A program made the translations under genes and the position numbers. The notes under the pieces are model-generated. The model was not told where the DNA came from. It did not search any database and saw nothing but the letters and a program-made list of their open reading frames with translations. Source: an uncultured virus (IMG/VR IMGVR_UViG_3300010158_000053) (lineage: Duplodnaviria > Heunggongvirae > Uroviricota > Caudoviricetes). From it: a stretch of 20,000 nt of DNA. The stretch's first letter is position 1; each line of letters starts with the position of its first letter. The stretch spans positions 56,711-76,710 of the IMG/VR virus record IMGVR_UViG_3300010158_000053; one strand, given 5' to 3'. Shown one piece after another: positions 4,906-19,910 of this stretch.

Positions 4906-4946
4906 TTTAAAGTTCCTTTAAAGTTAAAAGCATTCGCGTCTATCGC

Positions 4947-5966
4947 TTATGCACCTACAAAATGCTGTAGGATTTCGTAATGGTCTTCAAAGCATTGATC
5001 CGACCGGACCTCTGCAATAGGCACCCATCTAGCCTTTTCTGCATCATCACTACCTTTGACTTTTGGAAGTTCGCCATCAGGTAGAACAATGTGGAAAGCG
5101 TGTGTAATTATACGACCTCGTGGACTACGGTCAATTGCATCAAATACTCTGCTACGAACAATACTACCTTTAAGTACTGGAGCAGGAACCTTGATCTGTG
5201 TTTCTTCACGTAGTTCACGCAACATAGCGGCCTCAACACTTTTGTCTGTATTAGCATTGACATAACCGCCAGGCAGTGCCCAAAGGCCGCGACCTGGTTC
5301 AGCACGGCGTTTGATCATTAGTACGTGACCACTGCAAATGACCACAGCGTCGGCAGTACTAAAGATTGGAGGATACTTCAATCCAGCATATTGCTTTTTG
5401 TGTTCAATAATGAATTCACGTTCACGGATCACTTGTTCGTACTCTGCGGTAAGTGAAAACGCCATTAAGAAATCAAAAGTACTCGGCGGTACAACATTCT
5501 TAATAAAGTTCATATTGACATCACGTTTGAAATACAACTCGCGAATGTCAGTAGCATCAAGTGGTTCAAGCAGTTCTACTTCTTCAAAACCCCATTGCGG
5601 GAACATATCTAAGTAAAACGAACTTGGATCTTTCTTGTGCCCAATAATACCAATGTTATCACCCGGTTTGGTATGTTTAGCAACCAATGCTTGAACACGA
5701 ACTGCCCACGCTTGGTCATTGTAAATTGTATCTGGATTGGGTTCAACTTGAACCTGCAAGTCAAGTCCACTAGTTGCGTACTTGATCATTACGCTACGTT
5801 CGTGAAAGGTAAAGGGATTCTTGTAAGTGCGTGGCTGATTAGCGCTGCCGCAAATAAAGATCAATTGTTTACATTTAGCAGTGGCTCTATGTGCCAGCAT
5901 CAAATGTGCTGTGTGAAACGGTTGAAAACGTCCGATTAGGACAAGGGTATCATATTGTTTAGACAT
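4947..5966 (-). CDS. nadM: Bifunctional NMN adenylyltransferase / Nudix ADP-ribose pyrophosphatase (NadM-Nudix)
   Basis: IGRFQPFHTAH (HxGH-like), KNPFT, and a Nudix box PGGYV...AMLRELREETQI; GSDDAEKARW. Confidence 0.95.
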   Translation of the reverse strand: MSKQYDTLVLIGRFQPFHTAHLMLAHRATAKCKQLIFICGSANQPRTYKNPFTFHERSVMIKYATSGLDLQVQVEPNPDTIYNDQAWAVRVQALVAKHTKPGDNIGIIGHKKDPSSFYLDMFPQWGFEEVELLEPLDATDIRELYFKRDVNMNFIKNVVPPSTFDFLMAFSLTAEYEQVIREREFIIEHKKQYAGLKYPPIFSTADAVVICSGHVLMIKRRAEPGRGLWALPGGYVNANTDKSVEAAMLRELREETQIKVPAPVLKGSIVRSRVFDAIDRSPRGRIITHAFHIVLPDGELPKVKGSDDAEKARWVPIAEVRSDQCFEDHYEILQHFVGA

Positions 5967-6670: not shown

Positions 6671-6734
6671 ATTGTACTTTTATTTACTATAGGAATCAAC
6701 CTAAAAATAGCATTTTTCAATTGAAAATTCCTAT
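6671..6734 (-). promoter_or_regulatory. Promoter TTGATT-N17-TACAAT with upstream OxyR/LysR-like ATAG-N7-CTAT/CAAT boxes
   Basis: ATAG-N7-CAAT at 6707-6721 and ATTG-N7-CTAT at 6720-6734, next to the -35 of a peroxide-defence gene. Confidence 0.5.
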
Positions 6735-6748
6735 GACTTCTATAGTCA

Positions 6749-6773
6749 TAAAAATAGGCTCCGGAGAGCCTAC
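6749..6773 (-). terminator. Terminator at the 3' end of the tmRNA coding piece
   Basis: TAGGCTC-TCCG-GAGCCTA hairpin followed by TTTTT. Confidence 0.85.
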
Positions 6774-6774
6774 T

Positions 6775-6956
6775 TTGAGTTTCTGTTGCGAGGTATGTCT
6801 TACCCCAGGCTGCGTTTAGGCGGCCAATGCGTAAACTGAATCGTTTGCATTTATAGGTTTTGTGTCTTCGGCCGGGAAACCCCAACCCTAACGGCTTCTA
6901 CATTGCCGGACTGTCCATTTCATTACTCTTGACCCTGTCGAAACCATGGCAGGCCC
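6775..6956 (-). ncRNA. ssrA: Two-piece (permuted) tmRNA, coding piece; tag peptide ANDSVYALAA* at 6848..6816
   Basis: Starts GGGCCTG-CCATGGTTTCGACAGGG (tmRNA 5' end); resume context ATAAAT-GCA-AAC-GAT; tag ends in YALAA. Confidence 0.93.
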
Positions 6957-6969
6957 ATCATAAGAAAAC

Positions 6970-7167
6970 TTACTTTATAAAACGAGGAATACGAATTTCT
7001 GTACCAGCATATTGAAATGAATCTAACATTGGAACTAATGATTCAATATCACTAGCATTGTGTCGTTCCATCATCGTATGCTCACCATCTATCAACATAA
7101 AGTACAACTTGGTTGTACCTTCGTCAACTTGCGGCTTGAAAATATATTCTAAATCTTGTAAAATCAT
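6970..7167 (-). CDS. Hypothetical protein (65 aa) encoded in the tmRNA intervening segment
   Basis: SD TAAGGAAG immediately follows the acceptor-piece CCA; the ORF fills almost all of the 223-nt spacer. Confidence 0.7.
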   Translation of the reverse strand: MILQDLEYIFKPQVDEGTTKLYFMLIDGEHTMMERHNASDIESLVPMLDSFQYAGTEIRIPRFIK

Positions 7168-7179
7168 CAAACTTCCTTA

Positions 7180-7244
7180 TGGTGGACCTGGCGGGAGTCG
7201 AACCCGCGTCCAGAATCCTTTTCAATCGACTTCATACAGTCTTA
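7180..7244 (-). ncRNA. ssrA: Two-piece (permuted) tmRNA, acceptor piece
   Basis: Ends ...GGAC-GCGGG-TTCGACT-CCCGC-CAGGTCC-ACCA. CAGGTCC pairs with GGGCCTG of the coding piece and gives G3.U70; GACTGT/ACAGTC and GATTCTG/CAGGGTC give further inter-piece pairing. Confidence 0.92.
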
Positions 7245-7250
7245 ACTTAC

Positions 7251-7279
7251 AGTATATATTTATTTAATATCTATGTCAA
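7251..7279 (-). promoter_or_regulatory. sigma70-type promoter TTGACA-N17-TATACT for the tmRNA precursor
   Basis: Near consensus, immediately 5' of the acceptor piece. Confidence 0.88.
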
Positions 7280-8987: not shown

Positions 8988-9109
8988 CAAGTTTTGAGAA
9001 AACTTGCAAAACGAATTTATATTGAAGCACACTTATGACGTTTCTAATCACAGCGGTGTCACTGCCTTAATATCTACACTATGTATAAATTAAATGTACT
9101 TTAATATAA

Positions 9110-10003
9110 TGGAGGACTGAGAATACATCCTTACCGAACAACACCTCGGACATTATTGTAAACCTTGCGAGTCTACTTTCTTCCGACTTCCACTAAGCCC
9201 TATTGCTAGGTATCCTAGTCTGTTGTCAACATCGCCGTTTTTAGTGACAGGCAGTAGTCACGTCGCCGTATGCTATTCTACACTTTCCATTCCGTTGACC
9301 TTGCGAGCCATTCAAGTGCGCTAACACCTTACGAAACATCCTGTATAAACTAATCTCACCTTGCGAGTTTAATTAGACTTAGTTCTCTTACGAGCCAAGT
9401 ATTAGATGTCTTTCACATACGACCGAGTCAGTCTTTGCATTTTATATAAGGTTGGATTTGAACCAACAGCCTATTCCTTAAAAGGGAATTGCACTACCAT
9501 TGTGCTACTGTAAACCTACTGCGATGTGCTGACTCAGTTGCTACATAATCTTTTGGACTACATAATACAACACACCACGTACCTTTTGTCTTGCGAACTA
9601 CTCAGTCGTCTTTTGCGATCTGTGTCGACCCCGCCATTGCTGACAGCCTCCACTAACCACTCAAACTGCATACAAGCCCTTAGGTGCAACCCTTCGGACA
9701 AATACACTACCCTTTCTCATACTAATTAACTGGACTGGTTTAGTTGTGAAGTCAGCACCACCTGTTACTTTCCATCTACTCAAGTTCCCCTTGCGGGCTT
9801 GTAAGCAAAGGTTCTTTCCACAACATCCAGCGTCATTGTTACAACCACCGGTCTTATCAGTGATCGCTGTCTCGCGACAGTGAGCAGGCTTGTCTAAACG
9901 AACTATTACTAGCGGAGTTATGTAGGCATACCTCCTTTGGCTGTGTCACCACAGTTATTCTTCGTCGACGGCGAACCGCCTACAGGATATTAAACTACCC
10001 TTA
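9110..10003 (-). ncRNA. Giant structured RNA, probably GOLLD-like (boundaries approximate)
   Basis: About 900 nt without a credible ORF; many GCAA/GNRA-capped hairpins (repeated CTCGCAAGG); embedded tRNA-like domain; phage tRNA-cluster context; ends ...TTCTCAGTCCTCCA. Confidence 0.65.
9443..9516 (-). other. tRNA-Lys(UUU)-like domain without a proper acceptor stem, embedded in the giant RNA
   Basis: D arm GCAC-AATGGTA-GTGC, anticodon arm ATTCC-CTTTTAA-GGAAT, T arm GTTGG-TTCAAAT-CCAAC; no CCA. Confidence 0.75.
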
Positions 10004-10005
10004 AA

Positions 10006-10119
10006 TTCTTATACAACTGCACACCTACAGGATTTGAACCTGTGGACATTGCCAATAGACAATGCTATGCTCTAACCATATCAGCGTGGCCTACGCCTTA
10101 GTGGGCAGTTGTATAAGAA
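10006..10119 (-). repeat. 15-bp inverted-repeat cassette enclosing a degenerate tRNA-like element
   Basis: TTCTTATACAACTGC/GCAGTTGTATAAGAA; contains T arm ACAGG-TTCAAAT-CCTGT and TGGTTAGAGCA. Confidence 0.7.
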
Positions 10120-10176
10120 CTTCTTATACTCGATTTTTTAAAGAACGTATACGCTAATTGCTTAGTGTATGTATAT

Positions 10177-10205
10177 ATTGTAGCAAACTTCTTACTGTTT
10201 GTCAA
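10177..10205 (-). promoter_or_regulatory. sigma70-type promoter TTGACA-N17-TACAAT upstream of the giant RNA
   Basis: Near consensus. Confidence 0.85.
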
Positions 10206-10426
10206 CACTTTTTTAAAAATATTTTAAAATAAATGCTCTGCATCCCCCGGCGGTAATTATAGTACATCAGACCTTTGGAGTCATCACACGTACCTTCCAC
10301 CCGCTCCCCGACAGGGACCGTTCTCGCATTGCTAGCGGCCTTTTGGTAAGAAGACTACCACCCTTGCTTATCACAGCACTTCTCATCGTACGGGTCATAC
10401 TATCTGCTGATTAGACAGAACGTTCT

Positions 10427-10503
10427 TGGTCGGAGTACAAGGATTCGAACCTTGGGCCCCTGCGTCCCAAACGCAGTGCTCTACCAGACTGAGCTACACT
10501 CCG
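10427..10503 (-). tRNA. tRNA-Pro(UGG)
   Basis: Canonical cloverleaf, loop TTTGGGA, CCA. Confidence 0.95.
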
Positions 10504-10510
10504 AATAAAC

Positions 10511-10585
10511 TGGTACGTCGTGACGGGATCGAACCGCCGACAGCCACCGTGTAAGGATGGAGTTCTACCGCTGAACTAACGACGC
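10511..10585 (-). tRNA. tRNA-Val(UAC)
   Basis: Cloverleaf, loop CTTACAC, CCA. Confidence 0.95.
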
Positions 10586-10592
10586 AAAAATC

Positions 10593-11105
10593 TTACTTAA
10601 CTTGTTCTACTATTATACCTGACTTCTCAAGGAATGTCAAGCCTGAATCATCTCTATAATTTTCATTATAATAAACGTTACTAATGCCAGACTGTAAAAT
10701 AAGTTTAGCACACTGAATACAAGGACTGTGAGTAACGAATAAGGTTGCCCCCAATCCGGACTCACCACACTTAGCCAATTTCGCAATCGCGTTTGATTCA
10801 GCATGTAATACCTCTGGTTTAGTTTTTAATCCGTAACGTACATCACGTTGAGCACCTTCGTGCCAACCTTCATATGGATACTTGGCATCAAACTCTTCTG
10901 GATCTAACCAGCCACCTGCACCACTATCCCATACTTGGTCTTCACAGTTGTTATCCCAACCTGCGGGCATACCATTGTAACCAATGCTAATGATGCGATC
11001 ATCTTTGACTACAATAGCACCAACTTTTAGTCTACGAGCGTGGCTAAGTTCTGCGAACCGCCGGGCTGTATCCATGAATGCTTGCTTAAACTTTTCTTTC
11101 ATCAT
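10593..11105 (-). CDS. dCMP deaminase
   Basis: KVGAIVV, IISIGYNG, HAE and SPCxxC zinc-deaminase motifs. Confidence 0.93.
   Translation of the reverse strand: MMKEKFKQAFMDTARRFAELSHARRLKVGAIVVKDDRIISIGYNGMPAGWDNNCEDQVWDSGAGGWLDPEEFDAKYPYEGWHEGAQRDVRYGLKTKPEVLHAESNAIAKLAKCGESGLGATLFVTHSPCIQCAKLILQSGISNVYYNENYRDDSGLTFLEKSGIIVEQVK
10612..10640 (-). promoter_or_regulatory. sigma70 promoter TTGACA-N17-TATAAT inside the 3' end of dCMP deaminase, driving tRNA-Val/Pro
   Basis: Perfect consensus. Confidence 0.85.
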
Positions 11106-11120
11106 TACCTATCTTAATCT

Positions 11121-11194
11121 TGGAGCGGGATAAGAGAATCGAACTCTTGACCGAAGATTGGAAATCTGCTGTTTTACCATTAAACTAATCCCGC
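11121..11194 (-). tRNA. tRNA-Gly(UCC)
   Basis: Cloverleaf, loop TTTCCAA, ends TCCA. Confidence 0.93.
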
Positions 11195-11540
11195 ATACTT
11201 TATTATAACACACTAACGACAAATGTTCACCTGCTTTGACTAAGTCGACCCACAGGCACCTTTAAAGACGATTTGGGCAGTATTGCTACTACTGGGATGA
11301 AGTCCGCATAGTCAATGCATTATAATAAAGTGTCCAGCTACTCTCACCACAAGAGCCCTGAACTGGGTGGTTGCCCCGTCCATAACATTTCTTCTTCTGG
11401 AAAGGCGTTAGTCCTCACCCAATGCGTTCTAGTATCCCTTAAATGGGGAACTAATGGTCAATGCACTGCACACCCGGCGCTCTCTATGGTGACTGCCCCA
11501 CCCACTTTTATAACGGTAAAAGTGTAAACCGGGTTTCCCT

Positions 11541-11614
11541 TGGTGCCCCACGACAGAATCGAACTGCCATCACAGGATTACAAAACCAGTGTACTACCAT
11601 TGTACTAGTAGGGC
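11541..11614 (-). tRNA. tRNA-Thr(UGU)
   Basis: Cloverleaf, loop TTTGTAA, weak anticodon stem, CCA. Confidence 0.88.
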
Positions 11615-11619
11615 CGTGT

Positions 11620-11790
11620 TTAAATCAAATCATTCTTAGGAATAACATTAGATTCATATACAGCAAGTGCTTGACGGAATTCGTCTTCACCTAGTGCGTG
11701 CCAACCAATGCATACGCCCAATGGGCTACGACCGCAACCACACTTTTTAGCAGTGGGTTCTACCTGTTCTACTTGAATTTCTTCTGACAT
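11620..11790 (-). CDS. Small CDGSH-like Fe-S/zinc-binding protein
   Basis: CGCGRSPLGVCIGWH resembles the CxCxxSxxxPxCDGSH motif; start reassigned to ATG 11790 after SD AAGGAA. Confidence 0.65.
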   Translation of the reverse strand: MSEEIQVEQVEPTAKKCGCGRSPLGVCIGWHALGEDEFRQALAVYESNVIPKNDLI

Positions 11791-11791
11791 A

Positions 11792-11977
11792 TTATTCCTT
11801 ATTGCTATCATTAGTTGATGTTACCCAACTAATTTTACTTTCTTGTTTTTCAATTTCTGGCAATGGGGGAGGAACATATTGTGGTTTCTTAAGTTTCTCT
11901 CCAAAAATTGCATCAAACTTATTACCAAGTTCTTCTTGGCTAACACTAAATGGTCGTGGTCGACTGCCCTTACTCAT
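11792..11977 (-). CDS. Small phage hypothetical protein (MSKGSRPRP type)
   Basis: ATGA overlap with the rpoZ-like gene; upstream GAGGAAAG. Confidence 0.75.
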   Translation of the reverse strand: MSKGSRPRPFSVSQEELGNKFDAIFGEKLKKPQYVPPPLPEIEKQESKISWVTSTNDSNKE

Positions 11978-12201
11978 CGTACTTTCCTCAAATATTCAAT
12001 ACCAACTTTGCCATTTTCAATTTCCTTAAGAGCAGTAACAATAGCGGAACTGTTGTTGTTATTGTCCACTAGAGGACGACTGCCACGTTTCAATTCACGA
12101 GTGCGAATTGCCGCAACAAGAACAAGATCAAAACGATTACCAATCATCTCAACACATTTTTCAGTGTCGTTCATTGTGCGGACCAATTTAGGTTGAATCA
12201 T
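11974..12201 (-). CDS. rpoZ: RNA polymerase omega subunit homolog
   Basis: IGNRFDLVLVAAIRTREL..G..PLV and VTALKEIENGKV match the conserved omega regions. Confidence 0.88.
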   Translation of the reverse strand: MIQPKLVRTMNDTEKCVEMIGNRFDLVLVAAIRTRELKRGSRPLVDNNNNSSAIVTALKEIENGKVGIEYLRKVR

Positions 12202-12232
12202 AAGTACTTTCTATAAATGTTAAACAAAATTG

Positions 12233-12315
12233 TGGTGCGCCGGGAGAGACTCGAACTCTCACGCACTAGGCACTGGCTTCTAAGACCAGCGTGTCTACCA
12301 TTCCACCACCAGCGC
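12233..12315 (-). tRNA. tRNA-Leu(UAG)
   Basis: Type II cloverleaf, loop CTTAGAA, CCA. Confidence 0.95.
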
Positions 12316-12334
12316 AAATACTAACTAAAAAACT

Positions 12335-12363
12335 ATTATAACACAATATTTATTGTGCGTCAA
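12335..12363 (-). promoter_or_regulatory. sigma70-type promoter TTGACG-N17-TATAAT
   Basis: Near consensus; palindromic spacer containing TAAATA. Confidence 0.82.
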
Positions 12364-12619
12364 TAGCAAGAACGAAATAATGAATTTGTAGTCTAGTGTC
12401 CTCAGGTTTATCACTAGTGTTTAGACGTACAGAGCCGGACTTCCTTACGTCGAGTTCTTCCAGGACTTGTTACTTGGGATACCGGTCCAGCGTGGATTCC
12501 ATCTATCGCCGGTCCCACTCAAGCGACCAGCCGGGCATCGAACCCGCTTGCCTTCTACTATACAGTACCTTCGAAGAATACCGTATAGCGTGACATTCTC
12601 TTGCTAACACTACAAAACT

Positions 12620-12711
12620 TGGTACCAGCGGTGGGAATCGGACCCACTCAAGAACGCTAATCTGGCGCTAAAAGGCTTATAAGACCTCTCTGACTTCCAA
12701 GTCTCGCTGGC
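12620..12711 (-). tRNA. Atypical tRNA-Ile(UAU) with long variable arm
   Basis: Acceptor GCCAGCG/CGCTGGT-ACCA, loop CTTATAA, short D arm, T loop TCCGATT. Confidence 0.75.
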
Positions 12712-12724
12712 AATAAAAACTATA

Positions 12725-12801
12725 TGGCGTCCCGTAGAGGAGTCGAACCTCTGTGAATATCCCGAAAAGGATACTATCCTTGGCCACTAGATGAACGGGA
12801 C
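12725..12801 (-). tRNA. tRNA-Glu-like with irregular (8-nt) anticodon loop
   Basis: Glu-type body GTCCCGTTCATCTAGTGGCC...ACGGGACGCCA; anticodon arm GTATC-CTTTTCGG-GATAT. Confidence 0.75.
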
Positions 12802-12939
12802 AAATAAAATGTTAGGTGTGCTTTTACGCTAAAAGGGATGTCGGCCTTACCAGTTACGGGGTACCTAATACTTCCTGTATTACATACAGGCCCTACTCCT
12901 TAGAGGATGGACACCTTTAATCCCACCTTCCTAACTAAA

Positions 12940-13020
12940 ACCATATATAAACACACTCAACCTTCCACCCTTGATTCGCTACTGCTACTAGGGGCGTGTT
13001 TTAATGTGTTTATATATGGT
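12940..13020 (-). repeat. 16-bp perfect inverted-repeat cassette (ACCATATATAAACACA/TGTGTTTATATATGGT)
   Basis: Read directly; the same arms recur at 19514-19609 and 19759-19839. Confidence 0.9.
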
Positions 13021-13100
13021 GCGAGAGACGGGACTCGAACCCGTATGCCTTTCAGCGGCAGATTTTAAGTCTGCTGTGTATACCATTCCACCACTCTCGC
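13017..13100 (-). tRNA. tRNA-Leu(UAA)
   Basis: Type II cloverleaf, loop CTTAAAA, CCA. Confidence 0.95.
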
Positions 13101-13166
13101 AAAATTTACTATATCTTTTTAAAGAACTTGTTAGCAGCCAACTCCATCATTTGCTGCTATGTATTA

Positions 13167-13195
13167 ATTATAGCATCATTTAGTTGCTATGTCAA
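13167..13195 (-). promoter_or_regulatory. sigma70 promoter TTGACA-N17-TATAAT overlapping the radical SAM stop codon
   Basis: Perfect consensus. Confidence 0.88.
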
Positions 13196-14720
13196 GAGCC
13201 AAAGACTCGCGATATATGGAATCTGGTAATCCCTGTCCCATACTATGCTCAAACTTTACTGCTACACCACCTGGATTAAAAGGAATGTTTAATGCTGCTC
13301 GAACGTCTTTTTCTACTAGGTCGCGAAGTTCCACAATCTTTTTGGCACTCAAATTGTCAGTAAACACATAGGCAGTGTAACCACCATTAGGGTCGCCTTT
13401 GTAGTAATCGGCCGTTACAGTATGATCTAATTCATAAGAGTGTAACTTGTCGCCTGTTTTACGATGCGTGTATGTCCAAACACCTTTTTCTACTGGATCA
13501 GGTACTGCTAGGTCATAGTATGGGGTGCCTGGATATGTAGTGATCACTGTACAATCAAAGTCATCAATTTTCATTTTGATCAGCCAGTCACGAATACACA
13601 TAATACTTTCTTCGCTTTCACCAGGATGACCAACACTCATCAATGCTTTGACTTTTAGTCCATACTTGTGAGCAATTTCAACAACACGAGTATTGTCTTC
13701 CAGTGTGGCCATCTTGTCAATGTTGATCAGCATACGAGGGTCAGCGGATTCAAATCCGCTCAGTATCCATCGGAAACCAGCTCTGTACATTGCTTCCGCT
13801 TGTTCTTCAGTAAACAATTCTGCTTTAATAAATCCACGTAGTCTAAACTCGACACCTAATTCCTGTTGCAAGTCATAAATGTCGTTCATCAATTTGACAA
13901 AACTTTTATTGACGTTTAGTTCATCATCATAAAACATAAAACCAGTATAACCATATGTTTCATATAACCAACGCACTTCGTCAACAATGCTCCATTCACT
14001 GCGGGTGCGAATAATACGTAGGCTTCTACTATTTCGTCCTCCACAAAAACCGCAGTTAAATGGACATCCCAACTGTGCAATCAAACTTGTTGCGGGGAAC
14101 CCTTCAATGCTGTAATGATACGTATTCAAATCAACCAAATGTCTTGCAGGGCGGGGAAGTTCTTCATACTGTTCATTAGACATAAAGAAATCACCACGCA
14201 TATCGTCACCGTCTACCATTTTAGGACAATCAGATTTGAAACATTCGAATACTGCTAGTTCTCCATCTCCTGATACCAATACATCAAAATAACTTTCAAG
14301 TAATCTCGCTGCTTTACGAGCACGACCATCAATTACTCCGGCTTTTTCTTCTACCTTAACTGCGCTGTAAGTTAGTGTAACGTGCGGGCCTCCAAGCACA
14401 ATACGTAGATTAGGCCGTATTTTTCTAATACGGGTAGCTACCCTTACTGCTGCTGGCAATTGTGGAGTAGTGCAGGTAATACCAATCCACTCGATGTCTG
14501 CTGTTTCAACGTAACTATCAAGTGCTTCCAAATAGTTACTTACACCACTGAGATCTACAACACCAACATCAACTCCTTGTTGTTCAAGGCTAGCAGCAAC
14601 TCGCAAAATTCCTAGACTTACAAAGACACGTTCGTCAAGCAGAAAGGGACTAGGCGGGATGATTAGTCCCACCCGACGGCCACCAAAATTAAGTTTCTTC
14701 TTTAATTGAATAGTTGTCAT
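13176..14720 (-). CDS. Cobalamin (B12)-binding radical SAM enzyme
   Basis: N-terminal B12 domain (SLGILRVAASL, IGIT, VLGGPHVT, GDGE); CPFNCGFC CxxxCxxC motif; FYDDELN, GFES, YPGTPYY. Confidence 0.92.
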   Translation of the reverse strand: MTTIQLKKKLNFGGRRVGLIIPPSPFLLDERVFVSLGILRVAASLEQQGVDVGVVDLSGVSNYLEALDSYVETADIEWIGITCTTPQLPAAVRVATRIRKIRPNLRIVLGGPHVTLTYSAVKVEEKAGVIDGRARKAARLLESYFDVLVSGDGELAVFECFKSDCPKMVDGDDMRGDFFMSNEQYEELPRPARHLVDLNTYHYSIEGFPATSLIAQLGCPFNCGFCGGRNSRSLRIIRTRSEWSIVDEVRWLYETYGYTGFMFYDDELNVNKSFVKLMNDIYDLQQELGVEFRLRGFIKAELFTEEQAEAMYRAGFRWILSGFESADPRMLINIDKMATLEDNTRVVEIAHKYGLKVKALMSVGHPGESEESIMCIRDWLIKMKIDDFDCTVITTYPGTPYYDLAVPDPVEKGVWTYTHRKTGDKLHSYELDHTVTADYYKGDPNGGYTAYVFTDNLSAKKIVELRDLVEKDVRAALNIPFNPGGVAVKFEHSMGQGLPDSIYRESLALDIATK

Positions 14721-16123
14721 ACTTTTTTCTCAACCCACCAACAACTGCCAGTAACTCTTACATAACCAAACAGTTCGTTTGATGCGTTCATAACACCTGG
14801 CGCACCCATATGATAGTCGTGGCCACTAATGATGCCGCCATTTTTTACCTTTGGCCACCAAGCTATGATATCTGCTCTAACTGCTTCGTAACTGTGATCT
14901 GCATCAATGAATACAAAGTCTAAACTTTTATCCAAATAAGTAGTAGCAGCTTCCAAACTGGACATACGTTTGGCTTTATAATAACTTTTTACAGGCTCCA
15001 TATTCTGTTTGAAGATGTCAAACATTTTGTCGTTAACAACATCTGGATCTTCTAGATTGCCACCAGCTTGATGTTCAGGACTGCCTGCCCAAGTATCAAC
15101 ACAGTCAAAATTAATATTCTTGCCACTGTTGGCAATTTCCACAGCCATGAAGCTAGAACTTTTTCCCTTGTAACTTCCAATCTCAACAAAGTGAGCAGGA
15201 CCACTGAACTTGTCAATTATCTCTTTATAGAACGCAATGTCTCCAGGATTAAACCACCCTTCTACATTTTCATAGTAATGAGGAATATAATTCAGGTTAG
15301 GTTCAAACTTAGCAAATACTGAAAGCAAATCAGGATTCAAACTACTTCTATCTACAGGAATAAATTCAGTGTATGATGTTGTAGACGTTTCTCTACCAAA
15401 TAAATCTTTGCCAGTTCTGATGCGTTCTGCAATATTTCCAAGATTAATAATATCAGGAATATTATATTCTTGATGAGCAAAGTTCATAATCTTATGTTGT
15501 ATTTGCTCAGGAGTCATCCAATAACTTAGATGCCATCCAGCATCCATTATTTTAGGCAACTCCCATCGTTTTCTTCTAAACCATTGCGGGCTTTTTTCAG
15601 CAACTGATTTATTAGTAGTCAGTATTGTTCCTGCCCAAGGATTAGTTTGCTTCTGTTTAAGATTGTAATAAAACATATCTTGCACAAATGCAACCGCTTC
15701 CACGCCACTGTTAATATGTTGTATTGCTTGTTTAATGGCTTTCTTGGTTGGGATTTCGTCCAAGTCACTGATCATAATAATATCAGTGGGTTTAAACTGT
15801 TTTAAACCTTGTGCAATATAATTACGTTGATCAACATCCATTGCCATAGATGCATAATACGATGTTACATCCAAACTACCAACCGGCGGCACTCTTTTCC
15901 AGTCATACTTACTATGATCAGTACTCAATGGAAGATATATAATCTTCTTTTGAAATTTTCGATAACGCTCTGTATTATTTGCATAATTCATTGGCTTTTT
16001 ATTTCCGCTATGAGTGAGATCGTTTTCTACAATAACAAAATAGTCAACAGTGTCAAACAGATATTCAAGTCGACCTTCTAGCATATCAAACTCGTTGAAA
16101 AACATAAAGCAATCAATAATCAT
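14717..16123 (-). CDS. GT17-like glycosyltransferase fused to a C-terminal class I SAM methyltransferase
   Basis: IIDCFMFFNEFDML..RL, ISDLDEIP, GWHLSY, K..NFAHQE; C-terminal VEIGSYKGKS, FVFIDADHSYE, GGIISGHDY. Confidence 0.88.
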   Translation of the reverse strand: MIIDCFMFFNEFDMLEGRLEYLFDTVDYFVIVENDLTHSGNKKPMNYANNTERYRKFQKKIIYLPLSTDHSKYDWKRVPPVGSLDVTSYYASMAMDVDQRNYIAQGLKQFKPTDIIMISDLDEIPTKKAIKQAIQHINSGVEAVAFVQDMFYYNLKQKQTNPWAGTILTTNKSVAEKSPQWFRRKRWELPKIMDAGWHLSYWMTPEQIQHKIMNFAHQEYNIPDIINLGNIAERIRTGKDLFGRETSTTSYTEFIPVDRSSLNPDLLSVFAKFEPNLNYIPHYYENVEGWFNPGDIAFYKEIIDKFSGPAHFVEIGSYKGKSSSFMAVEIANSGKNINFDCVDTWAGSPEHQAGGNLEDPDVVNDKMFDIFKQNMEPVKSYYKAKRMSSLEAATTYLDKSLDFVFIDADHSYEAVRADIIAWWPKVKNGGIISGHDYHMGAPGVMNASNELFGYVRVTGSCWWVEKKV

Positions 16124-16536
16124 TTTAAGCTACTCGCAATAAATCCTGCAAAATGTACTACATTACAATTTACAAGATTGGCATAATCATTATCATAAAT
16201 TAATTTACGCATTGCTTCAACAATTGCCGGATCACTTTCAATGTACAATGTGTAACCTTGTTCTACACAGATACGATATTTAAAATCTGCGGCTGTTTCA
16301 GCATCGTCAGTTTTCATTATAACAGTTTGTGGTCGTGTGGCCAACTGTTCAATCCACTTTTCAGTAATGGGCCTATATTCTGCTGAACGTGCAGTTACAA
16401 TATCAAACTCGCCAACTGGACTAAACAGGGGTTTGGCATACAAAGTCTGTAGATAAAACTCTTGCATTGTTAAGTTGGGAATATGGTGATAGTCTGGAAC
16501 TAATACGCCATCCAAATCAAAAGCAATTTTACTCAT
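16120..16536 (-). CDS. HAD-superfamily phosphatase/nucleotidase-like protein
   Basis: IAFDLDGVL (DxD), IVTAR, K and YIESD motifs. Confidence 0.8.
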   Translation of the reverse strand: MSKIAFDLDGVLVPDYHHIPNLTMQEFYLQTLYAKPLFSPVGEFDIVTARSAEYRPITEKWIEQLATRPQTVIMKTDDAETAADFKYRICVEQGYTLYIESDPAIVEAMRKLIYDNDYANLVNCNVVHFAGFIASSLK

Positions 16537-17005
16537 CTCGGAATCTTACTCCGTAATCAACACTTACTTTCTTACTGCCCCACATGGGTTCTTCAGCAAA
16601 GTAAGGTAAACGAACACCTTGAATAATTTCATTGCGAACAAGTTCAGGTGTAAGCCAATCACTAAACAGTACTGCCCAACGCCATTCAGTATTGGGATAG
16701 TAACGACTCATAAACAGTTTAGTGTCCTTGTATGTTGTACCTGACAAAATGTTGTCATCAACAAACACAATACGTTCTGGATCAGAGCCAGTAATCAATT
16801 CACCACGTTCTGACCAATATGCACCTAGTGGTAATTTAAGAATTTGCGCTGTCCACATAGCATAACTAAATCCGCTACGTGCCACAGCAATAATTTCATT
16901 AGGTTTGAAATCATTAATTTGACTGACCATATTGTTAAAGTATTTTTCACCTTCATCATTGGTCATAATGCGAGGTTGTTCTGGAAAGTCTGTAAATTTG
17001 TTCAT
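16529..17005 (-). CDS. Type I phosphoribosyltransferase
   Basis: IIAVARSG and PRPP-binding loop IVFVDDNILSGTT. Confidence 0.88.
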   Translation of the reverse strand: MNKFTDFPEQPRIMTNDEGEKYFNNMVSQINDFKPNEIIAVARSGFSYAMWTAQILKLPLGAYWSERGELITGSDPERIVFVDDNILSGTTYKDTKLFMSRYYPNTEWRWAVLFSDWLTPELVRNEIIQGVRLPYFAEEPMWGSKKVSVDYGVRFRDE

Positions 17006-17016
17006 ATGTTTAAGTA

Positions 17017-17090
17017 TGGTGCTCTAATGCAGAATCGAACTGCAATTCCTGTCATACCAAGACAGTGTTCTTCCATTAAACTATAAGAGC
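17017..17090 (-). tRNA. tRNA-Thr(GGU)
   Basis: Cloverleaf, loop TTGGTAT, CCA. Confidence 0.9.
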
Positions 17091-17099
17091 GATGTAGGG

Positions 17100-17172
17100 C
17101 TGGCAAACCTGGGCTCGAACCAGGGACCCACGGATTAACAGTCCGTTGCTCTACCAACTGAGCTATATGCCA
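17100..17172 (-). tRNA. tRNA-Asn(GUU)
   Basis: Cloverleaf, loop CTGTTAA, G73; full CCA not encoded. Confidence 0.93.
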
Positions 17173-17179
17173 ATATTCT

Positions 17180-17404
17180 TTATTCTTCTGATGAAGTACT
17201 GGCAGTGCCAGTATCATTTGTTACATAACCTGCATTACCACGAGGTTTGTTATCATTACGTGGTTCACGTTTAACAACAACTTCACTTGCCAATTGTGCT
17301 TGGATCATCATATTCTTGAATTGATTACGTTGCACTGGATCAACGATTGAACCCATTAATGTCTTTGTTGTACTACGCATTTTGAAAGTCTTATTAGGTT
17401 TCAT
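17180..17404 (-). CDS. Small hypothetical protein (74 aa)
   Basis: Fills the gap between tRNA-Ser and tRNA-Asn; purine-rich RBS. Confidence 0.75.
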   Translation of the reverse strand: MKPNKTFKMRSTTKTLMGSIVDPVQRNQFKNMMIQAQLASEVVVKREPRNDNKPRGNAGYVTNDTGTASTSSEE

Positions 17405-17425
17405 TTTTTCTCTTTATAAATTTTA

Positions 17426-17515
17426 TGGCGGAACGACTGAGACTCGAACTCAGAAAGCGACTTTCATCACTCGACGGATTAGCAATCCGCTCCAATACCA
17501 TTATGGGACCGTTCC
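17426..17515 (-). tRNA. tRNA-Ser(GCU)
   Basis: Type II cloverleaf, loop TTGCTAA, ends GCCA. Confidence 0.93.
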
Positions 17516-17524
17516 TTAATACTT

Positions 17525-17553
17525 ACTATACACTACTTATTGCACCTTGTCAA
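17525..17553 (-). promoter_or_regulatory. sigma70-type promoter TTGACA-N17-TATAGT
   Basis: Near consensus, immediately upstream of tRNA-Ser. Confidence 0.82.
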
Positions 17554-17568
17554 CAAGTATTTAAAATC

Positions 17569-17681
17569 TGGTACGGCTGGCAGGTCTTGCACCCGCAAAA
17601 GCAAATGACTATGTCCTTGCCCCGTCCCCATTCTTGACTATGGGTCAAGCGGGAGGTCTGCTATATTCCACTCACAGCCGC
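17569..17681 (-). ncRNA. 113-nt tRNA-like RNA with an expanded anticodon region
   Basis: Acceptor GCGGCTG/CAGCCGT-ACCA; T arm GCGGG-TGCAAGA-CCTGC; no 7-nt anticodon loop. Confidence 0.7.
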
Positions 17682-17688
17682 ATATATT

Positions 17689-17716
17689 ATTATACGTATT
17701 TAACTATGAATGTCAA
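17689..17716 (-). promoter_or_regulatory. sigma70-type promoter TTGACA-N16-TATAAT for the tRNA-like RNA
   Basis: Consensus hexamers; predicted start falls near the RNA 5' end. Confidence 0.75.
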
Positions 17717-17738
17717 TGTCTTTTTGTATCATTAATTT

Positions 17739-17823
17739 TGGTGCCCTGGGGGAGACTCGAACTCCCAAGCCTTTCGGCACAGCGACCTCAACGCTGCGTG
17801 TCTACCAATTCCACCACCAGGGC
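17739..17823 (-). tRNA. tRNA-Leu(GAG)
   Basis: Type II cloverleaf, loop TTGAGGT, CCA. Confidence 0.95.
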
Positions 17824-17833
17824 TAAGGTTATA

Positions 17834-17908
17834 TGGTCTGGCGTAACGGAATCGAACCGCTGTTTAGAAGGTAGAAGCTTCCTGTATTTTCCACTATACG
17901 AACGCCAG
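17834..17908 (-). tRNA. tRNA-Arg(UCU)
   Basis: Cloverleaf, loop CTTCTAC, CCA. Confidence 0.9.
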
Positions 17909-17909
17909 A

Positions 17910-18413
17910 TTAGAAATATTGATATCTAGATGTGAGATTAGTTTTATCTTTGACCATACGATCAAACTGTCCGCTCTTGCCATCTTTGTAGAAACCGCTG
18001 GGATCTAGTATACGTCCACGTATTTCTACCCAACTATGTGGAATCCAACAAAACTCTTCAGTTAGGTTGTTGTTAGTTATATAGGCAACTCGATCTTGAG
18101 ATTTACGTGGATCTAAACCTTGACTACGTAGTTTGGCAACATCATCTCGTGTAAATGCATCTAGGCTTGTATCTGCTACATCGGCCCTAAACCAGCCCAT
18201 AGACTTTTTACCATTTACTATTCTACCAATAGGAACAATCTCTGCATTACGAATACCTTTTTGTTTATCTAAAAACTGCATTAGGTCCTGGCTAGCACCA
18301 TAGCAGTTGTCCTGTACAAAATAATATTGTAATTGCACAGGTGTACATTGTGCCCAAAATTCTTCTAATAGGGAATCTATATTGGATTCGAGTAATAAGT
18401 CTAGCAGTTTCAT
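17910..18413 (-). CDS. Transglutaminase/papain-like fold protein (putative Cys-His-Asp triad)
   Basis: DNCYGAS...PHSWVE...ILDPS; start moved to MKLLDLLLE at 18413, downstream of the tRNA. Confidence 0.6.
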   Translation of the reverse strand: MKLLDLLLESNIDSLLEEFWAQCTPVQLQYYFVQDNCYGASQDLMQFLDKQKGIRNAEIVPIGRIVNGKKSMGWFRADVADTSLDAFTRDDVAKLRSQGLDPRKSQDRVAYITNNNLTEEFCWIPHSWVEIRGRILDPSGFYKDGKSGQFDRMVKDKTNLTSRYQYF

Positions 18414-18417
18414 TGTG

Positions 18418-18425
18418 TATTTATA
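18418..18425 (-). promoter_or_regulatory. T4-type late promoter motif TATAAATA
   Basis: Exact motif ending 4 nt before ATG 18413. Confidence 0.55.
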
Positions 18426-18502
18426 TGGTACCCCGTGTCTGATTCGAACAGACATCCAACTCCTTTTGAGAGAATCCGCACTACCAATTAGCGTAACGGG
18501 GC
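18426..18502 (-). tRNA. tRNA-Leu(CAA) lacking the long variable arm
   Basis: Loop CTCAAAA, 77 nt, A73, CCA. Confidence 0.8.
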
Positions 18503-18516
18503 ATAAACTTTTTAGG

Positions 18517-18587
18517 GGTGACTAACGGGATTCGAACCCGTACTACCAGAGTCACAGTCTAGGTTGCTACCATTACAACATAGTCAC
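18517..18587 (-). tRNA. tRNA-His(GUG)
   Basis: Cloverleaf, loop CTGTGAC, C73; neither G-1 nor a full CCA is encoded. Confidence 0.9.
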
Positions 18588-18609
18588 ACCTAAAAAGTCT
18601 AATTTGATT

Positions 18610-18684
18610 TGGTCTCGCCGAAGGGAATCGAACCCCTATTAACTCGTTAGGAGTGAGTGGTACTATCCATTGTACTACAGCGAG
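18610..18684 (-). tRNA. tRNA-Arg(CCU)
   Basis: Cloverleaf, loop CTCCTAA, CCA. Confidence 0.9.
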
Positions 18685-18696
18685 ATAAATATTTTT

Positions 18697-18861
18697 ATGA
18701 GAACATATGACAACGTTACTCCAAGTGGTCTACAATTTCATCTATGCTTGTTAGACGGGGTATGTTGCATCGTTGTTAAGGACACATATGATTCTACATA
18801 TTTCGAAATGAAATACTTTACCAACGTAAATTCTGCACTACGTTGGATCAACAATCTTTAA
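18697..18861 (+). CDS. Small hypothetical protein (54 aa), the only credible plus-strand gene
   Basis: Fits exactly between two tRNAs; preceded by TAAATA 5 nt before the ATG. Confidence 0.6.
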   Translation: MRTYDNVTPSGLQFHLCLLDGVCCIVVKDTYDSTYFEMKYFTNVNSALRWINNL

Positions 18862-18864
18862 TTG

Positions 18865-18939
18865 TGGCGGGCCTTGAGAGGATCGAACTCCCACCAACGG
18901 TTTCGAAGACCGCTATGATATCCATTTCACCAAAAGCCC
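18865..18939 (-). tRNA. tRNA-Arg(UCG)
   Basis: Cloverleaf, loop CTTCGAA, ends GCCA. Confidence 0.92.
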
Positions 18940-18940
18940 A

Positions 18941-19381
18941 TTAAACAGTAATGTATTCGTAGTTAACAGTTTCTTCATTACTACGGAAAACATTTGCACC
19001 ATTTTTAATATGAAACTTACGTGCCATATCAGTTGGTGGACTCAATGTAACAAACCTTTTTATTGATGGCTTGTTTTCCTTAATGTGTTCAACTGCTTTA
19101 AAAATCAACGAACGGCCAGCACCAGGAGCATAACTCCAAATGGTGTAAAACACTGCAACACTGGGTTCAGTATTTACTGTAAACAATTCTTGTTCCGTTG
19201 TTGGAACAAAGTCTTGATAACTTACACAAGTGATTGCCTTAACACTACCTTCTTCGTCACGATATACAAAGATATCTCGATTAGCACCAATTCTACTCAT
19301 TGTAGGAATAGAAGGTCGAACAGGATCTTCATTTAAGAAGTTGAAAAAATTATCTGTGTCAGAAGTAATTAGGTGCAGCAT
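18941..19381 (-). CDS. Hypothetical protein, GNAT-like fold
   Basis: FYTIWSYAPGAGRSLI resembles the acetyl-CoA-binding motif A; ARKFHIKNG resembles motif B. Confidence 0.6.
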   Translation of the reverse strand: MLHLITSDTDNFFNFLNEDPVRPSIPTMSRIGANRDIFVYRDEEGSVKAITCVSYQDFVPTTEQELFTVNTEPSVAVFYTIWSYAPGAGRSLIFKAVEHIKENKPSIKRFVTLSPPTDMARKFHIKNGANVFRSNEETVNYEYITV

Positions 19382-19439
19382 ATTAGCCTTGGAGTTATAA
19401 CTGTACTTATCTATTTAGAGTTCAAACCATTATGAAACT

Positions 19440-19515
19440 TGGTGGTGATGGTGAGACTCGAACTCACGATCTTTTCCGTATGAAGGAGCTGCATTGGCCG
19501 CTATGCTACATCACC
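19440..19515 (-). tRNA. tRNA with CAU anticodon (elongator Met or Ile2)
   Basis: Loop TTCATAC, acceptor GGTGATG/CATCACC-ACCA. Confidence 0.88.
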
Positions 19516-19609
19516 ATATATAAACATACTACTATCACTCAACTGTCCGCTTGGTTGGCACTACGCACCAACTGTGATATAACGGTATTTTTAGTATGTT
19601 TATATATGG
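19514..19609 (-). repeat. 18-bp perfect inverted-repeat cassette (CCATATATAAACATACTA/TAGTATGTTTATATATGG)
   Basis: Read directly; arms overlap the upstream CCA and the downstream tRNA 5' end. Confidence 0.9.
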
Positions 19610-19709
19610 CGAACTCATTGTAGGCAGGATTTCGAAACCTGCAAGTGGGCATTTAACTCCACCGGCCCTATAAGAGGCCTATGTTTGACCATTCCATCAC
19701 TACGAGTTC
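19607..19709 (-). ncRNA. Atypical tRNA-like RNA (extended bulged acceptor stem, 9-nt T loop, long variable arm)
   Basis: GAACTC-GTAG/CTAC-AAT-GAGTTC-GCCA; GCAGG-TTTCGAAAT-CCTGC; anticodon arm GGCCT-CTTATA-GGGCC. Confidence 0.7.
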
Positions 19710-19758
19710 ATCGGGTCATGACTCCCGATTATGGATCAGGGTAATTACTCCTGTTAAG

Positions 19759-19839
19759 ACCATATAGAAACACACTAAAACACAACCTTAGTTTCCCAGT
19801 TACGGTATTGTCAGTTGGTATAATGTGTTTTTATATGGT
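19759..19839 (-). repeat. 16-bp inverted-repeat cassette (one mismatch) of the same family
   Basis: ACCATATAAAAACACA/TGTGTTTCTATATGGT. Confidence 0.88.
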
Positions 19840-19910
19840 CGGGGCACAGGGACTCGAACCCTGATAGACCGGGTAAAAGCCGGTTATTCTAGCCATTGAA
19901 TTATACCCCG
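19836..19910 (-). tRNA. tRNA-Lys(UUU)
   Basis: Cloverleaf, loop CTTTTAC, CCA. Confidence 0.92.

Follow-up and report, generated by a model that had tools for sequence, protein, structure and literature searches.

Hairpin cassettes with a conserved stem and exchangeable inserts between the tRNA genes of uncultured jumbo phages

Phage tRNA islands are viewed as loci for counter-defence and translation support, and the question raised here is what else such an island encodes between its tRNA genes. The DNA analysed is a stretch of 20,000 nucleotides (the window), positions 56,711 to 76,710 of the uncultured virus record IMGVR_UViG_3300010158_000053, of which it forms the final 20 kb. The spacers of its tRNA block contain six hairpin cassettes (c1 to c6; Table 1), in which two complementary arms frame an insert that differs from cassette to cassette. 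All six lie on the minus strand, the strand that also holds every tRNA gene of the window (24 ARAGORN calls of tRNAs or transfer-messenger RNA, tmRNA). It is proposed that the cassettes are stem-framed small RNAs encoded in the spacers of tRNA/GOLLD operons, co-transcribed with their neighbours and released by the processing of tRNA ends, a reading that we consider probable by a modest degree.

The conserved stem and its docking on RNA ends

A preliminary description of this DNA, made from the letters alone, had counted at least five and probably six cassettes. All six are present: an inverted-repeat search of the window finds the stems of five, and the sixth (9017-9112) shows on RNA folding. 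In each fold a long helix closes a branched interior, and the energy z-scores against shuffles are -3.1 to -6.6. The arm word CCATATAWAAACAYA occurs 10 times in the window when up to two mismatches are allowed, compared with 0.38 +/- 0.61 times in shuffles, none of 200 shuffles reaching 10; with up to one mismatch, the whole 76.7-kb record gives seven matches, all within the window, and none for the reversed pattern used as a control. The arm sequence is common to four cassettes. The earlier view of the arms as near-identical in c1-c3 is borne out, as is their divergence in c5, but in c4 only the inner arm belongs to the family, and the arms of c6 turn out to be unrelated. The canonical arms, CCAUAUAAAAACACAUUA / UAGUGUGUUUCUAUAUGG in c1 with an A.C mismatch at stem position 8, surround inserts of 45 nt in c1, 60 nt in c2 and 45 nt with an invariant loop in c3. 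Variant outer arms and a family-like inner arm (..CAUU / AGUGUGUU..) frame a 93-nt multi-hairpin insert in c4, while c5 has the variant arms UUAUAUUAAAGUACAUU / AAGUGUGCUUCAAUAUAA and, as in the canonical arms, a 1x1 internal loop at position 8. The 18-bp stem of c6 resembles no other cassette arm in sequence, and its insert is a tRNA-like cloverleaf.

The cassettes are members of a large family. Two pattern scans of IMG/VR, requiring both arms with 35-65 or 66-96 nt between them, returned at least 122 and at least 120 stretches, respectively. These 242 loci and the window make 243 sources, 238 of which carry tRNA genes, and yield at least 209 unique exact-arm cassettes. With up to two mismatches per arm, loci L001-L441 and the window contain at least 318 unique cassettes, the base for all counts out of 318 below; insert length across the family is about 35-110 nt. 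A 146-amino-acid (aa) open reading frame (ORF) beside the window cassettes (18941-19381) has relatives on at least 594 viral contigs. Four records with such relatives measure 342-364 kb and are 95-100% complete, which places the window, whose own record is 19% complete (CheckV), in a clade of uncultured jumbo phages. The carriers of the cassettes are a clade of uncultured freshwater (lake) jumbo phages.

The stem is an AU-rich helix of 18-19 bp. Positions 14-18, which lie outside the search pattern, pair in 174-209 of the 209 exact-arm cassettes, through CG/UG/UA, AU/UA and UG/CG/UA pairs and with all four types at position 18; from position 19 onwards the pairing breaks down. The tRNA strand has U.G pairs at arm positions 14 and 16. 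Among non-canonical outer arms, found through the inner arm, 56 of 70 pair over the outer 7 bp with no more than one mismatch, as against 0 of 70 in a slid control. Position 8 is an A.C mismatch in 149 of the 209 exact-arm cassettes and paired in 50, and in variant arms it is paired in 30 of 57 (G-C or A-U in 28), so that the mismatch is not obligatory; a 1x1 loop at this place nevertheless recurs in arms of other sequence, those of c5 and of the cassette behind GOLLD in L412. Some 15 arm positions hardly vary between phages in which the 146-aa neighbour protein shares just 56-72% identity. Selection on the stem acts on pairing, as its covariation attests, and also on sequence, and the strength of the sequence conservation points either to a sequence-specific reader or to a use of the arms as recombination handles.

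Docking on the ends of neighbouring RNAs is exact. That the left arm starts on the upstream CCA, and that the copy at 9017 (c5) follows the CCA ending a giant RNA, had been noticed before and is confirmed; the giant RNA is GOLLD, and the c5 left arm starts on its CCA. In 216 of the 318 cassettes the left arm starts exactly on the CCA of an ARAGORN-called tRNA, whose last base is the A of this CCA (offset 0), other offsets within 10 nt accounting for 6. At the other end, the terminal GG of the arm supplies the start of the next tRNA in 91 cassettes (the first G in 76 and the second in 15; offsets -1 or 0). This is the arrangement of c2, situated between a CCA-ended tRNA-like RNA and tRNA-Met (19440-19515), whose G1G2 are the terminal GG of the right arm. 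In a further 50 the downstream tRNA starts 3-10 nt from the arm end, and the remainder have other RNA downstream; c4 directly abuts tRNA-Gly 11121-11194. Counted by flanking ARAGORN tRNAs, 81 cassettes have one on both sides, 137 only upstream, 28 only downstream and 72 on neither side. The commonest upstream tRNA is Lys(UUU) (114/318) and the commonest downstream is Met. An A precedes the CCA in 174 of 218 docked cassettes and a U follows the arm in 255 of 318, which makes the helix one pair longer.

The tRNA-like RNA that provides the CCA for c2 possesses a T arm as well as a long (~10-bp) bulged acceptor-like stem; it is called neither by ARAGORN nor by Rfam at E up to 5. An element AACAGGAGUAAUUACCCUG... 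precedes it (region 19612-19758, minus strand) and recurs after cassettes in L159 and L473. Two further tRNAs of the window are followed by left-arm-like half-sites (Table 1). At these places (18411-18428 and 17003-17019, minus strand) ORFs of 167 aa and 158 aa begin 12-13 nt past the tRNA CCA and lack a Shine-Dalgarno sequence; their mRNAs would be nearly leaderless once the tRNAs are processed.

Table 1. Coordinates of the cassettes and associated features in the window. Percentages give arm complementarity; z, folding energy z-score.
Feature	Position	Strand	Details
c1	19759..19839	-	stem 19758-19782/19816-19840: 25 nt, 84%; z -5.6
c2	19511..19612	-	stem 19511-19531/19592-19612: 21 nt, 95%; z -6.2
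c3	12940..13020	-	stem 12940-12960/13000-13020: 21 nt, 90%; z -6.6
c4	11197..11331	-	stem 11197-11217/11311-11331: 21 nt, 81%; z -3.1
c5	9017..9112	-	stem from RNA fold; z -3.9
c6	10003..10122	-	stem 10003-10024/10101-10122: 22 nt, 91%; z -6.5
tRNA-Lys(UUU)	19836..19910	-	ARAGORN, Rfam; CCA forms first base pairs of c1
tRNA-like RNA ending in CCA	19612..19700	-	c2 docked; read from sequence
tRNA-Leu(UAA)	13017..13100	-	ARAGORN, Rfam; c3 left arm starts on CCA
GOLLD RNA, conserved 3' domain	9114..9578	-	Rfam RF02032, 201.8 bits; c6 on 5' side, c5 on 3' side
Left-arm-like half-site, no right arm	18414..18428	-	after tRNA-Leu(CAA), runs into ORF start
Left-arm-like half-site, no right arm	17005..17019	-	after tRNA-Thr(GGU), runs into ORF start
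Sigma-70-like promoter, 12/12 consensus	13167..13195	-	ahead of tRNA-Leu(UAA) and c3
Sigma-70-like promoter, 11/12 with TG	10177..10205	-	ahead of c6 and GOLLD

Insert families and their exchange

The modular design proposed from the window, in which conserved arms frame structured inserts unrelated to each other and the cassettes dock on tRNA ends, holds over hundreds of related viral contigs. BLAST sorts the inserts of the 318 cassettes into 196 clusters (157-163 at looser settings, with 97-101 singletons), on the basis of 1178 similarity links as opposed to 5 to a shuffled database. Double-sided compensatory changes are found in 1-5 inner pairs of 12 of the 14 largest clusters and in none of the other two, and loop and junction sequences are constant within the largest clusters. 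Random variation of the inserts between phages, one part of the outcome that the preliminary description had named as refuting its small-RNA system, is not what is seen; there are conserved insert families with compensatory changes.

Relatives are known for four window inserts (c1, c3, c4 and c6). The c3 family comprises 15 sequences, from the window and 14 other contigs, in at least five arm variants. Its 28-nt loop region, GCCCCUAGUAGCAGUAGCGAAUCAAGGG, is invariant in 14 of the 15 while the arms covary: the share of paired cells is 96.2%, compared with 29-46% for slid partners, and both bases have changed in 11 of the 28 pairs (10 of 21 in the closing helix), a level reached by 0 of 500 shuffles. 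The family was found with an exact 16-mer, which biases only part of the c3 conservation. The c1 insert recurs in L473, after a CCA-ended sequence resembling the 3' end of the window tRNA-Lys, and in L485, after a GOLLD-like end; that of c4 recurs in L503 with a compensatory arm change, and that of c6 has a homologue in L412. For c2, a search with one exact 17-mer gave no cassette homologue.

Part of the inserts resemble tRNA. The T-loop word GGUUCRA is the most enriched insert motif (17 of 138 cluster representatives), and the inserts that carry it look like cloverleaves minus the anticodon loop. In the c6 insert the T arm is kept and the place of the anticodon arm is taken by an 8-bp stem with a tetraloop, leaving no anticodon loop; ARAGORN calls it as tRNA-Leu (10018-10106) and the Rfam tRNA model does not. 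Among the 318 cassettes none contains an ARAGORN-called tRNA. The inserts are independent folded RNA modules under selection, not filler, and a subset of them is tRNA-like. As a separate observation, clusters 0 and 1 (e.g. L266 3001-3097 and L280 3001-3110) are different families with a common invariant AACUGGACGCAGG, predicted to form a 3-bp hairpin with a GACG loop, which may be a common recognition element.

Comparison at corresponding sites of related phages, suggested in the preliminary description, reveals arms that are kept and inserts that are exchanged. The 29 unique tRNA-Lys(UUU)-cassette-tRNA-Met junctions hold 25 insert clusters, and 15 of the 24 clusters with at least three members occur behind more than one tRNA species. 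At the site before GOLLD, arms and downstream sequence are kept, the window and L412 having a homologous tRNA-like insert and L312 an unrelated 45-nt one. The site behind GOLLD carries a cassette in the window and in ten loci (L412, L147, L414, L144, L254, L403, L159/L250, L145 and L305), with at least seven different inserts, L305 having only a 5-nt loop; the insert of L144/L254 is also found in canonical arms behind tRNA-Ser in L421. The junction of tRNA-Gln and tRNA-Ser exists as CCAAATGG with no hairpin (L416), as a bare hairpin with a GUGA loop (L391) and as a 119-nt cassette (L388), and no direct duplication is seen there in any of the three. The finding of the same insert with different outer arms and the same inner arm supports a role of the arms as recombination handles, and at the DNA level the conserved arms may well serve for the exchange of modules between sites and between phages.

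Two other explanations bear on these data. In the first, the hairpin would serve mainly as a spacer or as a 3'-end element for the tRNA or GOLLD RNA that precedes it, and the inserts would be loop expansions that are tolerated and do nothing in trans, in the manner of rRNA expansion segments or intervening sequences. Such an element would fit the position of the hairpin, always directly after the mature CCA end of a tRNA or GOLLD, the near-empty versions found at such sites in L391 and L305, the partnerless left-arm-like trailers after other tRNAs, and the negative outcome of the target and mimicry tests described below. Bare hairpins are rare, however: a short loop is found in only 1 of 45 cassettes of a protein-anchored sample. 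Moreover, inserts are conserved across contigs that differ in arms and neighbours, with compensatory changes and, in c3, the invariant loop region, and they fold in a strand-specific way, which neutral filler should not do. We regard this explanation as unlikely.

The strand asymmetry also bears on the second explanation, a palindromic DNA element (MITE-like or PeSL-like) that spreads by mobility or recombination among tRNA spacers and whose RNA structure is incidental. Of 192 clusters, 139 have insert cores that fold more stably on the tRNA strand and 52 have cores that fold less stably there (Wilcoxon p = 1e-12), a bias that argues for RNA-level structure in the tRNA sense and not for a purely DNA-level palindrome; the U.G pairs of the arms and the covarying hairpins inside inserts point the same way. 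A mobile element would explain the terminal inverted repeats of conserved sequence, the same insert behind different tRNAs and in different arm variants, and the patchy distribution, the copy number of a record ranging from 0 to 3 or more (the complete relatives have none to three canonical cassettes each in the size ranges searched). Conserved intergenic motifs are moreover known exchange points in T4-like phages, as described for PeSLs (PMC4122927). On the other hand, the 318 cassettes have no common interior, falling into 157-196 clusters, and no transposase or integrase was seen beside the window cassettes, no search having been aimed at them. We consider an element of this kind improbable.

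Proposed release and roles of the cassette RNAs

For cassettes regarded as small RNAs framed by a stem, the following route is proposed. A cassette would be transcribed within the tRNA operon, as we infer from its orientation, from the upstream promoters (the window has six near-consensus sigma-70-type promoters directed along the tRNA strand) and from the lack of terminators, terminator-like sites not being enriched in the window (11 versus 7.2 +/- 2.4 in shuffles). The RNase P cut at the 5' end of the next tRNA would then create the 3' end of the cassette, where the -1 base is U, a favoured leader base for RNase P. The 5' end would be made by an endonuclease acting at the tRNA 3' end, candidates being an RNase Z/BN-type enzyme, RNase E, or RNase III cutting in the stem. 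The helix would clamp the two ends together and shield the small RNA from exonucleases. Since the cassette is often exactly the spacer between two tRNAs, the tRNA-end enzymes could free the unit without RNase III.

A processing by RNase III, as put forward in the preliminary description, is nevertheless a possible, if tentative, alternative, in which a staggered double cut by the host enzyme in the stem would part the hairpin RNA from the tRNAs on either side. It differs from the route above in the enzyme only, and both could operate together. In its favour, the helix is long, rich in AU and free of G-C pairs in its outer part; the 1x1 loop at position 8 in 149 of the 209 exact-arm cassettes, in c5 and in the arms behind GOLLD of L412 resembles internal loops of T7 RNase III sites; and the cassettes lacking a tRNA on one or both sides (209 of 318) need a nuclease besides RNase P. 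By contrast, 18-19 bp is at the short end of substrate length for this enzyme, position 8 is paired too often for the mismatch to be a requirement, and a reportedly weak sequence preference leaves the 15 conserved arm positions unexplained. Searches for RNase III and dsRBD domains (PF14622, PF00636 and PF00035) found none in the record of the window and the four complete relatives, so that a host enzyme would be required.

Several observations weigh against the release of stem-framed RNAs by tRNA-end processing. As 72 of the 318 cassettes touch no ARAGORN tRNA and 137 touch one only upstream, tRNA-end enzymes alone cannot release all of them, and another cut is needed. A helix that begins at the CCA leaves RNase E no single-stranded site. 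The conservation of the arm sequence beyond what pairing needs suggests a sequence-specific factor or recombination. The near-empty hairpins (the GUGA loop of L391 and the 5-nt loop of L305) indicate that the stem can persist without cargo. Two of the complete relatives, G002 and G004, have no canonical cassette in the sizes searched, making the system dispensable and accessory. Finally, transcription, processing and accumulation of the cassettes are inferred, and among the listed contigs of four metatranscriptome runs none covers a cassette, contigs being blind to small RNAs and to RNA ends. Six lake RNA runs contained 7-13% of the words searched for, and contigs identical to GOLLD region 9145-9938 are present in four lake metatranscriptome runs at a depth of up to ~300, a figure from contigs, which cannot rank expression.

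Most likely the inserts act in trans, binding protein or RNA, as accessory functions. More specific roles had been suggested from the window, among them CRISPR-related RNAs, antisense regulators and decoys, and these find no support in the tests run. No CRISPR or other family of Rfam 15 matched the window cassettes, the four cassettes of L363 or cluster 0 (L266); for the six window cassettes this holds at the gathering score and at E up to 5, save for chance-level rows. In 20 related loci, the best 150 of 316 gathering-level Rfam matches are to tRNA, GOLLD and tmRNA only. The six window inserts show no excess of antisense matches to their own 76.7-kb record over shuffles: on both strands the best ones extend over 10-12 nt without a mismatch or over at most 16 nt with a single one (20-24 bits), as do those of shuffled inserts. 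As for decoys of anticodon loops, 196 cluster representatives contain 8 hairpins resembling an anticodon stem-loop, compared with 4.9 +/- 2.1 in shuffles. Mimicry of rRNA was also considered, c1 and c3 presumably resembling 23S helix 69-71, and was rejected: BLAST against E. coli 16S, 23S and 5S rRNA gave only 8-10 nt for c1 and c3, and 321 inserts gave 12 matches of at least 24 bits versus 5.0 per shuffle, no clear excess, with non-independent members among them.

A bolder interpretation, which we put forward speculatively, is that the cassettes form an exchangeable arsenal of trans-acting RNA modules mounted on one double-stranded handle that a dedicated sequence-specific factor reads. The modules might, on this conjecture, be aptamer-like binders, tRNA-like mimics or sponges directed against factors of the host or of rival phages, and the handle might serve for processing, loading or recombination. 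Seated in the tRNA/GOLLD islands of jumbo phages, such an arsenal would correspond, at the level of RNA, to integron or anti-defence gene cassettes, and it could conceivably work together with the GOLLD nanocage that cassettes flank.

The GOLLD unit of the window appears to be ordered, from 10205 to 9114 on the minus strand, as promoter (10205-10177), c6, a variable 5' domain of ~400 nt, the Rfam 3' domain and then c5. The first element behind the promoter is thus c6, upstream of GOLLD, and the promoter region aligns in part with the related loci L412 and L312. A tRNA-Lys (9443-9515) is embedded in the 3' domain. A 29-nt, 76% complementary long-range pairing between 9979-10007 and 9087-9115 could enclose the whole GOLLD unit and overlaps the c5 left arm; nothing corresponding is found in L412 with as many as 8 errors allowed.

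Relation to known systems and genomic surroundings

The closest parallels are spacer-encoded small RNAs released from stable-RNA operons, among which the cassettes are placed, with a real chance that they are categorically new. The stalks of rRNA operons, the intervening sequences of 23S rRNA and the T7 early sites are RNase III substrates. The stalks and intervening sequences resemble the cassettes in that flanks pair into a long helix joining the ends of a structured RNA, the former in a polycistronic stable-RNA transcript that also contains tRNAs and the latter with variable inserts in a conserved helix. The cassettes, however, frame RNAs of 35-110 nt and more than 150 kinds, their helix starts on a tRNA CCA, and it is conserved across phages in sequence and not in pairing alone. 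Species 1 and 2 of phage T4 (rnaC/rnaD) are reportedly small stable RNAs in a tRNA cluster, co-transcribed with it and cut by tRNA-processing enzymes; they are likewise small non-tRNA RNAs among phage tRNA genes, but they are two fixed RNAs and are not known to have a common frame for interchangeable inserts. RNAs that abut tRNA ends are freed by RNase P and a tRNA 3'-end nuclease in mitochondrial transcripts and in the E. coli 3'ETS-leuZ sponge, and tRNA-punctuated release is also known from the tRNA-microRNA units of gammaherpesvirus 68 and from synthetic tRNA-guide RNA arrays. In these systems an RNA lies directly against tRNA ends as in the cassettes, but they are not known to have a conserved double-stranded clamp or hypervariable structured payloads.

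Two further systems are known from uncultured or T4-like phages. Theta (hepatitis delta virus-like) ribozymes adjoin tRNA genes in uncultured phages (PMC10879173); they have one conserved catalytic fold, whereas the cassettes share the stem only, have unrelated inserts and match no Rfam ribozyme. PeSL motifs of T4-like phages are short conserved intergenic exchange points that shuffle unrelated modules (PMC4122927); they are located beside protein genes and unite terminator and promoter, whereas the cassette arms are inverted, flank RNA modules in tRNA operons and pair with each other. In none of the systems compared does a conserved, CCA-joined double-stranded frame go together with structured payloads that are numerous and exchangeable. 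Within phage tRNA islands, GOLLD and ROOL RNAs form RNA-only nanocages of unknown use, according to a cryo-electron microscopy paper (PMC12286853). No description of such cassettes was found in the literature searched, in the consulted passages of the GOLLD/ROOL paper or in Rfam 15, and the RNA family seems to be previously undescribed.

GenBank phages contain no two-arm cassette, a cassette query giving only single-arm chance matches in 13 records, and they share only tRNA and GOLLD pieces with the window region. Among 185,579 bacterial species genomes there are 5 exact matches, 2 of which lie in tRNA arrays on contigs of metagenome-assembled genomes that are probably phage. The sole cultured phage with a homologue of the 146-aa ORF is Pelagibacter phage Mosig, whose record annotates a tmRNA and no tRNA genes in the 12.4-kb stretch around that homologue. 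With the cassettes, tRNA islands gain a large unannotated layer of at least ~160 clusters of small folded RNAs, the sampling of which is far from saturated, and thanks to the conserved frame all members can readily be located and tested together. Should the RNAs prove to accumulate, the tRNA-flanked release arrays built in synthetic biology would have a natural counterpart in them, and they would supply numerous new structured RNA motifs backed by covariation as well as a handle on how phages use non-tRNA RNAs in their tRNA islands.

Protein genes amid the tRNA blocks include those for a dCMP deaminase, a B12-radical-SAM enzyme, a glycosyl/methyltransferase, an RNA polymerase omega-like ORF and NAD-salvage enzymes. 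The NAD-salvage genes (NAMPT-like and NMNAT-Nudix, 3511-5966) and the omega (Rpb6-like) ORF (11974-12201) lie on the minus strand within or beside the tRNA island. A permuted two-piece tmRNA at 6725-7272 (minus strand) has the tag ANDSVYALAA, and the tmRNA of a relative (L264 4926-5298) matches the betaproteobacterial tmRNA model with 109 bits, a weak hint at the host group. At 12620-12711 (minus strand) ARAGORN calls a 92-nt tRNA-Ile with anticodon UAU, for which the best Rfam score is that of tRNA-Sec, a sub-threshold 30 bits. It recurs in L071 (1518-1609), with Ile(tat) calls also in L376, L380 and L405, and may be an unusual tRNA with a long arm or an 8/9-bp acceptor. Directly upstream of it, at 12725-12801 (minus strand), lies an ARAGORN tRNA with a 2-base anticodon and of undetermined identity. 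Between tRNA-Ile(UAU) and the next promoter there is an unannotated stretch of ~220 nt (12384-12601, minus strand), which has no Rfam match and contains a T-arm-like hairpin; contigs from four metatranscriptome runs cover it without differences.

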